A DNA stretch of 64,000 bases from Gammaproteobacteria bacterium (GTDB lineage: Bacteria > Pseudomonadota > Gammaproteobacteria > Ga0077536): positions 11,723-75,722 of the forward strand of contig JAURMM010000016.1 in NCBI GenBank assembly GCA_030830685.1. Direction: 5' to 3'. Under the pieces are notes generated by a model. The model was not told the origin of the DNA. It was given only the letters and a program-made list of their open reading frames with translations, and made no database searches. This document shows, piece by piece, positions 25,384 through 26,262 of this stretch. A program made the position numbers and the translations under genes. Every line of letters starts with the position of its first letter. Within the stretch, counting starts at the first letter, position 1.

Positions 25384-26262
25384 TCACTGTCGCTCAGACT
25401 CGCGGTAATGAAGTGAAGAGACCAGCTCAGCCACGATTCCGAAGAGGAAAGTCATCAGCGAAGCGCTATAAACAAGTGCGCTCATGTTGGTGAAGCGATG
25501 GAAGGCAGCGTAGGTGTACGCGTAGTACGCGCTTGCCGAGAGGAACAGAACCAGGCTCAGTGGAAGGAAGAAGCGCATTGGGGAGAAAAGCGTGCCGATC
25601 TTCAGGATGATGATCAGGAACCGCAAGCCATCCTGAAACATCCGGATATGACTCTTGCCTGTTCTTGCCAGGGCTCGAATAGGGACATACCCCACAGCCA
25701 ACCCGGAGCGAAAGAAGGCCATGGTGCTGGTAGTTGGCGCTGAGAATCCGTTAGGTAACAAGTAAAGAAACCGGCGAAAAAAATCCGCCCGGGCGGCGCG
25801 GAATCCGCAGGTCAAATCCTCGATGCGATGCCCCGCCATGTAACCGGCCAAGCGATTAAAAGAGCGGTTTGCGATGCGTCGGGCAAAGGAGGCCTGAGTA
25901 TCAGGGCTCCGCGCGCCTACTACCATCGGGTAACCTTGCCCAAGTTTCTCGAGCAGTGCAGGGATGTCCGCCGGATTGTGCTGTCCATCGGCGTCCATGA
26001 ATATCAAGTAATCGCGGGTAGCTGCGCGCGCGCCTGTCTTGATGGCCGCGCCATTGCCCATGCGGCAGGGATGGGAGATGCGAATCACGCCCATGTCCCG
26101 ACAAACGCAATCGGTGTTGTCGGTGCTACCGTCATCGATCACCAGAATCTCCGCGCCCGGGAGCGTCGCCTTTATGGCAGGCAGTAACAGTGCCAATCGC
26201 GGAGCCTCGTTGAGCGACGGAAGAATGACGCTGATTTGCTCGGGCTCTGGTGGTTTATTCAT
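25384..26262 (-). CDS. GT2-family polyprenyl-phosphate sugar synthase (GtrB/ArnC/DPM1-like)
   Basis: 292 aa. 'ISVILPSLNEA...ILVIDDGSTDNT', a 'DADGQH' DxD motif, and two C-terminal TM helices. This is the architecture of undecaprenyl- or dolichyl-phosphate glycosyltransferases that make lipid-linked monosaccharide donors for GT-C enzymes. Confidence 0.78.
   Translation of the reverse strand: MNKPPEPEQISVILPSLNEAPRLALLLPAIKATLPGAEILVIDDGSTDNTDCVCRDMGVIRISHPCRMGNGAAIKTGARAATRDYLIFMDADGQHNPADIPALLEKLGQGYPMVVGARSPDTQASFARRIANRSFNRLAGYMAGHRIEDLTCGFRAARADFFRRFLYLLPNGFSAPTTSTMAFFRSGLAVGYVPIRALARTGKSHIRMFQDGLRFLIIILKIGTLFSPMRFFLPLSLVLFLSASAYYAYTYAAFHRFTNMSALVYSASLMTFLFGIVAELVSSLHYRESERQ

Follow-up and report, generated by a model that had tools for sequence, protein, structure and literature searches.

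Three-component glycosylation systems share a common logic: a family 2 glycosyltransferase (GT2) makes a sugar linked to undecaprenyl phosphate (Und-P), a flippase moves it across the membrane, and a periplasmic glycosyltransferase of the GT-C type transfers it. The Gtr cassettes (GtrA/GtrB/GtrC) and ArnC/ArnEF/ArnT are built in this way. In Gram-positive bacteria, GacI/GacK/GacL, CsbB/GtcA/YfhO, and PgfS/PgfM1/PgfM2 likewise couple a GT2 enzyme to a GT-C enzyme; some of these rely on a MOP/Wzx-type flippase in place of GtrA, and the Pgf system, which modifies proteins, has two GT-C members. A MATE flippase serves in three-component systems for pentofuranose (PMC11127046). Here, we analyze a GT2 gene of a gammaproteobacterium (GTDB lineage Ga0077536), carried on contig JAURMM010000016.1 of assembly GCA_030830685.1 within a 64,000-nucleotide (nt) stretch of DNA that we refer to as the window. 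The gene belongs to an island that starts immediately after pilA, the gene for the major type IV pilin. We discuss its enzyme class, its linkage to 2 GT-C genes, and its probable role as donor synthase in pilin glycosylation.

The nearest precedent for the GT-C genes is TfpW of Pseudomonas aeruginosa (group IV), a GT-C enzyme whose periplasmic loop 1 carries a DDx motif and which ends in a tetratricopeptide repeat (TPR) domain; the gene is found downstream of pilA, and the enzyme transfers sugar from a lipid-linked donor to pilin (bioRxiv 10.1101/2020.04.19.049825). Homologues are reported from Acinetobacter, Azotobacter, Teredinibacter, and Kingella (bioRxiv 10.1101/2020.04.19.049825). In the TfpW strains Pa5196 and PA7, as in the window, a GT-C gene (DDx, TPR) directly follows pilA; TfpW draws on a lipid-linked donor and modifies Ser/Thr of the pilin. 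In those strains, however, the donor is polyprenyl-phosphate D-arabinofuranose, made through a phosphoribosyl pyrophosphate (PRPP)-dependent synthase, DprE1/DprE2, and a GtrA-like protein, whereas the window has a GT2 synthase in its place, a duplicated GT-C gene, and no TfpX. Pfam scans of roughly 50 window open reading frames (ORFs), covering most of 2.7–63 kb, revealed no D-arabinofuranose pathway (PRPP-dependent synthase, DprE1/DprE2), which may lie elsewhere in the genome.

The window differs from the Gtr and Arn systems in that it lacks a GtrA or ArnEF-type small flippase, its presumed acceptor is a protein and not O-antigen or lipid A, and the module is chromosomal. It differs from the Gac, CsbB, Pgf, and pentofuranose systems in lineage, GT-C family, and acceptor, and in that the Wzx-like gene is found in about a quarter of the loci. 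The searchable full-text literature yielded no description of a GT2, a TfpW-like GT-C, and pilA paired in this manner. The comparison suggests that the GT2–TfpW-like pilin module combines known three-component glycosylation with TfpW pilin glycosylation, a combination that appears undescribed. Ogt, a pilin-modifying TPR glycosyltransferase of Synechococcus, was considered as a relative and set aside, as it is an unrelated GT41 enzyme.

We consider it fairly probable, on the strength of sequence, structural models, and analogy, that GT2 makes an Und-P-sugar donor used by the TfpW-like GT-C enzymes to O-glycosylate the pilin PilA in the periplasm. The 4 genes at issue are as follows.

20927..21370, plus strand: pilA, major type IV pilin and likely acceptor (Pfam Pilin 1.7e-25, N_methyl 2.4e-10).
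21538..23451, plus strand: GT-C 1 (P0121), TfpW-like membrane glycosyltransferase of 637 amino acids (aa) with a C-terminal TPR; mechanical ORF start at 21487.
23379..25340, plus strand: GT-C 2, paralogue of GT-C 1 (35% identity over 450 aa, E = 5e-54), with a weak TPR_19 match.
25384..26262, minus strand: GT2, predicted polyprenyl-phosphate glycosyltransferase of the ArnC/GtrB/DPMS type, 292 aa from an ATG start, recognized by Pfam, profile, and predicted fold (DPMS is dolichyl-phosphate mannose synthase).

In the proposed pathway, GT2 would work at the cytoplasmic face of the inner membrane, moving one sugar from a nucleotide sugar onto Und-P. Once on the periplasmic side, the Und-P-sugar would serve the 2 TfpW-like GT-C enzymes, which would transfer its sugar to PilA, their TPR domains presumably holding the protein substrate. 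Beyond enzyme class and gene linkage, the steps of this pathway (the lipid acceptor, the hand-over to GT-C, the pilin target, and the sugar) are ones that we infer from the known three-component systems and from TfpW. The first-pass annotation of this DNA had not named an acceptor; the start of the island right after pilA makes pilin the likely one.

Residues 11–163 of GT2 match Pfam Glycos_transf_2 (E = 1.4e-26), an identical protein is already present in sequence databases, and all 8000 of the 8000 scored candidates in a database search fell at E <= 0.001. The best 120 of these 8000 share 60–68% identity over nearly their full length and are annotated at most as “glycosyltransferase family 2 protein.” Because of the Pfam match, the recorded identical protein, and this broad conservation, the ORF is, by sequence, a genuine and strongly conserved gene, not a chance ORF in GC-rich DNA. 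Its motifs DDGSTD (residues 42–47) and DADGQH (residues 90–95) and its 2 C-terminal transmembrane (TM) helices had been pointed out in the first-pass annotation; ORF, motif positions, and hairpin were all confirmed. The same annotation took the 2 motifs to define polyprenyl-phosphate synthases, which goes too far, since soluble GT2 enzymes and those acting on undecaprenyl pyrophosphate (Und-PP) also carry both. The discriminating features are the DxDxQ form of the motif, conserved Arg residues, a juxtamembrane helix with a C-terminal hairpin, and a full-length fold match.

Each of these features is found in GT2. Searched against solved structures, its sequence matched ArnC (5.9e-15) and Pyrococcus DPMS (1e-9), with GtrB further down at 5e-6; a family profile built on an alignment of 24 sequences returned ArnC (1.8e-24), DPMS (1.2e-21), and GtrB (1.7e-19), followed by chondroitin synthase (4e-16). 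A Foldseek comparison of the GT2 model with the PDB placed solely ArnC, GtrB, and DPMS at ranks 1–22 (E 1.3e-15 to 3e-10), in alignments of ~300 columns with TM-scores up to 0.71; the ranks that follow hold soluble GpgS-type enzymes, aligned over the catalytic domain alone. Residues D90, D92, and Q94 of GT2 align with D94, D96, and Q98 of GtrB (DxDxQ) and are invariant across the family alignment, as are R118 and R128, which align with GtrB R122 and K132, respectively. In GtrB, R122 and K132 bind the lipid phosphate, and the Gln of DxDxQ is metal-binding (PMC12698845). GtrB D157 is aligned with a Gly in GT2; this residue is not conserved among such enzymes (PMC12698845), and the invariant D149 of GT2, close by, lines up with the Asp found in ArnC and DPMS.

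The AlphaFold2 model of GT2 (mean predicted local distance difference test score, pLDDT, 80.7) contains a GT-A domain, an amphipathic helix at 205–226, and long helices at 228–254 and 259–291, and a hydropathy scan places hydrophobic segments at 215–233 and 259–277. Model and hydropathy thus both present a C-terminal two-helix membrane hairpin with a juxtamembrane helix; a second juxtamembrane helix, roughly at 126–143, is less certain. Mean column identity in the family alignment is 0.94 in the TM1–TM2 loop, 0.82 in TM2, and 0.78 in the catalytic domain.

Membership of GT2 in the polyprenyl-phosphate glycosyltransferase class is well supported by its sequence and its modeled structure. The earlier description of the protein as GtrB/ArnC/DPM1-like holds, as sequence, predicted fold, and membrane anchor are all of the ArnC/GtrB/DPMS class. 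With these enzymes (CAZy GT2), the window GT2 shares a GT-A domain with DxDxQ, conserved Arg residues that serve the lipid phosphate, and the C-terminal two-helix hairpin together with a juxtamembrane helix; it differs in having ~20% identity to them, in forming a tight subfamily of its own (60–68% across Gamma- and Betaproteobacteria), and in the unusual conservation of its hairpin. In this hairpin, we observed that the predicted periplasmic TM1–TM2 loop, R256-F257-T258-N259-M260, is invariant, as are Y246, Y247, T250, E279, S282, H285, and Y286 (region 223–286).

The linkage between GT2 and TfpW-like genes recurs across genomes. A GT2-anchored scan, with one genome per species, gave 80 loci with a GT2 orthologue at 55–65% identity. 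A TfpW-like gene adjoins GT2 in 55 of the 80 and lies 8 kb off in one more, and a weaker match in locus L057 would raise the count to 56. In 46 of the 80 loci, pilA is just upstream of the GT-C gene; most of the remainder are cut by a contig end. The usual order is pilA, GT-C, GT2 on a single strand, and the form seen in the window, with 2 GT-C genes and a convergent GT2, occurs in 9 loci. Starting instead from GT-C, an orthologous GT2 (55–65% identity) sits right after the GT-C gene in 5 of the 7 anchored loci with DNA, and in an eighth, for which there is no DNA, a 303-aa GT2 takes that place. These counts bear out the link between GT2 and the GT-C pair drawn in the first-pass annotation. 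Carriers of the module include Acinetobacter lwoffii, A. towneri, and A. johnsonii, Pseudomonas sp. P818, Comamonas (C. suwonensis among them), Ottowia, and Methylobacter (such as M. marinus A45).

In the window, pilS-pilR-pilA are followed by the 2 GT-C genes, GT2, and 5 further genes (GT4a, Wzx-like, kinase-like, methyltransferase, GT4b) that end at suhB. In the backbone sucCD-pilSR-pilA ... suhB-purM of 2 other loci (L084 and L088), pilA, GT-C, and GT2 stand alone between pilR and suhB; the 5 extra genes of the window are therefore an accessory block. The conserved unit is pilA, the 2 GT-C genes, and GT2, and the accessory genes are strain-variable. The features downstream of GT2 are these.

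26320..27549, minus strand: GT4a, GT-B Leloir-type glycosyltransferase (Pfam Glycos_transf_1 2e-37, Glyco_transf_4 2e-24), directly upstream of GT2 on the same strand with a gap of 57 nt.
27603..28877, plus strand: Wzx-like MOP-family membrane protein, accessory (Pfam Polysacc_synt 7.5e-10; ~10 hydrophobic segments).
28874..29653, plus strand: small kinase-like protein, accessory (weak Fructosamin_kin and APH matches around HGDLWMGN).
29650..30396, plus strand: S-adenosylmethionine-dependent methyltransferase, accessory (Pfam Methyltransf_25 9.7e-11).
30409..31398, plus strand: GT4b, second GT4 glycosyltransferase, accessory and last gene before suhB (Pfam Glyco_trans_1_4 3.8e-25).
31400–32176, minus strand: suhB, core gene (Inositol_P 2.5e-69).

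The 2 GT-C proteins (637–654 aa) have FDD, VQRM, SKEN, and EHRNYL blocks in common. The FDD motif follows the first membrane helix in both; in GT-C 1 it is F25-D26-D27, which is family-invariant, as is HRNY at 349–352. The AlphaFold2 model of GT-C 1 (pLDDT 90.2) has a helical membrane domain to approximately residue 400 and TPR-like helices at 402–636; profile comparison with the PDB also detects the TPR domain, which is present in 23 of 30 family members. The GT-C 1 gene is directly downstream of pilA, which ends at 21370. Published features of TfpW include a DDx motif within its first periplasmic loop together with a TPR domain at the C terminus, and it is by these features, not by the TfpW sequence, that we infer homology of GT-C 1 and GT-C 2 to TfpW. 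A homologue search with the A. lwoffii GT-C returned only the name “tetratricopeptide repeat protein,” with no A. venetianus or P. aeruginosa among the top 120, and the YX6PFX7P motif of TfpW was not found in that form in the window GT-C. The last 73 nt of GT-C 1 (23379–23451) also belong to the GT-C 2 ORF, whose start codon is uncertain because homologue alignments begin further in.

Several observations weigh against a dedicated role of GT2 in pilin glycosylation by way of an Und-P-sugar. GT2 falls under every curated NCBIfam equivalog cut-off. The best NCBIfam match is the archaeal dolichyl-phosphate (Dol-P) hexosyltransferase AglJ, at full length (residues 10–287 of 293), with 108.6 bits against a cut-off of 325, followed by the Dol-P-hexose transferase (71/375), PpgS (62/370), ArnC (61/529), and PgfS (48.5/500). 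The class is therefore supported, but no donor sugar can be assigned, and sugar specificity from curated hidden Markov models, a search for a specificity clade that the first-pass annotation had put forward as a check, was rejected. On the side of the GT-C enzymes, Foldseek matches GT-C 1 to ArnT, STT3, and Pmt4 at E-values of 4e-3 to 3e-2, so that the GT-C fold assignment, made from these values and the motifs, is a weak one. The linkage is also incomplete in both directions. GT2 occurs without a TfpW-like gene in 11 loci that extend at least 7 kb to either side of it, and those inspected are polysaccharide-type clusters; the GT2 enzyme family is therefore not exclusive to pilin. Conversely, 2 GT-C modules (L085 and L087) are without this GT2 and carry Wzx-like genes and Leloir transferases, hence the GT-C family can use other donors. 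In addition, the minimal modules L084 and L088 encode no flippase gene. Finally, 50 associated pilins contain no conserved Ser/Thr acceptor outside the N-terminal helix. Most of these pilins end in “CR,” which makes TfpO-style glycosylation of a C-terminal Ser unlikely as a rule; the window pilin ends in ...CRNIGS.

Among the rival explanations, the one that survives best, which we nevertheless hold to be unlikely, keeps pilin as the target and changes the role of GT2: the enzyme would prime an Und-P-linked oligosaccharide that the GT4 enzymes extend, the methyltransferase and kinase-like protein cap, Wzx flips, and GT-C moves en bloc to pilin. Such a route would resemble the AglJ-initiated assembly of N-glycans on dolichyl phosphate in Haloferax, and AglJ is the best full-length profile match of GT2; to our knowledge, however, there is no bacterial precedent for Und-P-linked oligosaccharides. 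GT4a homologues (34–52% identity) adjoin GT2 in about 15 other loci, separated from it in several by a few bases up to a few tens, and no initiating phosphoglycosyltransferase was found among the scanned window ORFs, nor was a Wzy_C-type oligosaccharyltransferase. Yet the minimal modules L084 and L088 have no GT4 or Wzx gene of any kind, and L087 has GT4a and a Wzx-like gene with no GT2 within 7 kb, so a GT4 route needs no adjacent GT2. Conservation fits a constant first sugar with variable extensions: across syntenic loci, GT2 (62–65% identity) is as conserved as PilR and SuhB (59–76%), the GT-C proteins are at 33–45%, and the accessory genes vary. Co-occurrence of Wzx-like and GT4 genes, on the other hand, is not significant: in loci of at least 14 kb, GT4 is present in 12 of 15 with Wzx and in 29 of 44 without, and GT4 is common enough regardless of Wzx that no significant link between the two can be claimed.

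It is quite unlikely, in our judgment, that GT2 instead supplies a donor for lipopolysaccharide O-antigen or another polysaccharide through a GT-C enzyme encoded elsewhere, the position beside pilA being a hot spot for surface-glycan genes. Members of the family do occur in polysaccharide clusters that lack both pilA and a TfpW-like gene, for example L003 (ABC_tran, GT10, GT11), L023 (Wzt-like ABC protein), and L045 (carbamoyltransferase). Nonetheless, in the window and most other loci, GT2 directly follows GT-C genes, the minimal modules have no other glycan-related gene nearby, and the GC content of GT2 matches that of pilA and both GT-C genes (0.565–0.568 for all 4, against 0.625–0.647 in flanking core genes). 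A third proposal, that GT2 is an ordinary Leloir enzyme of the PglI/WbbL type adding sugar to an Und-PP-linked or soluble acceptor and not to Und-P, is highly improbable: DxD motifs alone are generic to GT2 enzymes, PglI is among the weak matches, and a WbbL-like GT2 holds the same position in L085, but that L085 enzyme is unrelated (BLASTP E = 0.025) with no C-terminal two-helix hairpin seen by eye, the Und-P-binding Arg positions are conserved in the window GT2, and its full-length fold match, juxtamembrane helix and hairpin included, is solely to ArnC, GtrB, and DPMS. A prophage-borne Gtr-like cassette was likewise rejected, as the window genes on either side are housekeeping genes and IMG/VR viral contigs hold no GT2 orthologue (best match 34% identity, over the catalytic part alone).

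If GT2 supplies an Und-P-sugar to the TfpW-like enzymes, the donor would have to cross the membrane. The first-pass annotation had noted that no GtrA-like small flippase is present, and this is borne out: a hydropathy scan found no ORF of 90–200 aa with at least 3 hydrophobic segments in the 64-kb window, and no intergenic gap in the island exceeds 170 nt; there is therefore no GtrA-like gene there. It had pointed to a nearby Wzx-like MOP flippase instead. That gene is present, at 27603–28877; as a regular partner of GT2 it does not stand, since 15 of the 59 loci that span at least 14 kb carry a Wzx-like gene and such genes also turn up in modules without GT2 (L085, L087). A dedicated role for Wzx in flipping the GT2 product was accordingly rejected as a general rule, both on this frequency and on the non-significant co-occurrence with GT4. 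The suggestion of a self-contained pathway is too strong as well, given minimal modules without a flippase gene. A tentative and rather doubtful proposal is that GT2 and a TfpW-like GT-C form a two-protein pilin glycosylation machine needing no separate flippase; from the flippase-less minimal modules and the conserved GT2 hairpin, one may imagine that the hairpin docks GT-C or helps to move Und-P-sugar across the membrane. In 3 loci (L067, at 10852–12576; L075; and L082, Acinetobacter), an ABC exporter (ABC_membrane plus ABC_tran, ~570 aa) starts at most 10 nt from the GT2 stop codon. By analogy, the Acinetobacter ABC exporter could be a PglK-like alternative flippase.

The gene content around GT2 varies further among loci. 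A DegT-family sugar aminotransferase lies within ~6.5 kb downstream of GT2 in 8 of 33 loci (L056, L004, L012, L067, and others), directly after it in L056 (Pseudomonas sp. P818, 10862–15228) and L004; it is often beside an epimerase/dehydratase gene, as ArnB accompanies ArnC. By that analogy, some modules may load an amino sugar. In L085 (11127–19943), the GT2 position is taken by the unrelated WbbL-like GT2, a large methyltransferase, a Wzx-like gene, rmlA, rmlD, and rmlC, a gene set suggesting that this GT-C pair handles a rhamnose-type glycan. In L086 (12342–15935), GT2 is followed by 2 membrane proteins of the Sulfatase family (PF00884), which could be LtaS or EptA-like phosphotransferases. 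Three loci (L005, L006, and L032) come from metagenome-assembled genomes titled Klebsiella pneumoniae, uncultured Klebsiella sp., and Hydrogenophaga intermedia; their GT2 is at 65% identity and they carry the window backbone genes, and these names look like mislabelled bins. Within the window itself, the kinase-like gene (HGDLWMGN) is directly followed by the methyltransferase gene, with overlapping stop and start codons (28874–30396). We take this pairing to recall the chain-capping kinase/methyltransferase WbdD, with the kinase assignment being weak.

Upstream of the island lie regulatory genes, and candidate control elements flank pilA and GT2.

17614..19332, plus strand: pilS-like sensor kinase (Pfam 6TM_PilS 1.8e-31, HisKA, HATPase_c).
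19340..20680, plus strand: pilR-like sigma-54-dependent response regulator (Pfam Response_reg, Sigma54_activat 7.4e-69, HTH_8).
20817..20832, plus strand: sigma-54-like -24/-12 element GGGCACGCTATGTGCA (pattern match, 2 mismatches), ~95 nt upstream of the pilA start.
21371..21537, plus strand: structured pilA–GT-C intergenic region with 2 strong hairpins and no T-run.
25329..25345, minus strand: terminator-like hairpin followed by a T-run (consensus scan), 39 nt past the GT2 stop codon.

Matches to the sigma-54-like pattern in the window are as frequent as expected by chance, so that it is the position of this element that speaks for it; its place ahead of pilA fits control by PilR. Terminator-like sites in the region are also near chance expectation in number. 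The RNA fold of 21365–21540 has a free energy of -64.2 kcal/mol (z = -3.39 vs shuffles), and the intergenic fold may represent attenuator-type control of pilin accessory genes, a mode of control mentioned in PMC11841053. The genes pilD, pilC, and pilB are at 4161–8039, 13 kb from pilA, with clpB, rluD, nadE, and sucCD between them. A gene for the lipid A 3-O-deacylase PagL is at 47044–47658, and the other scanned window ORFs are housekeeping genes.

Phage susceptibility and immune recognition are both shaped by how pilin is glycosylated; in P. aeruginosa such glycosylation is a documented anti-phage defence (bioRxiv 10.1101/150227). Homologues of TfpW are widespread beside pilA, and the sole donor pathway described for them is that of D-arabinofuranose. 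A dedicated Und-P-sugar synthase beside most TfpW-like genes would offer a concrete and testable donor route, and the flippase-free modules raise the question of how Und-P-sugars cross the membrane. If the proposed pathway is true, it would also provide a compact two- or three-gene protein O-glycosylation module for glycoengineering. The module is carried by environmental and clinically relevant genera (Acinetobacter, Pseudomonas), methanotrophs, and wastewater bacteria, and its recurrence in many proteobacteria points to a common route for sugar-coating pili.

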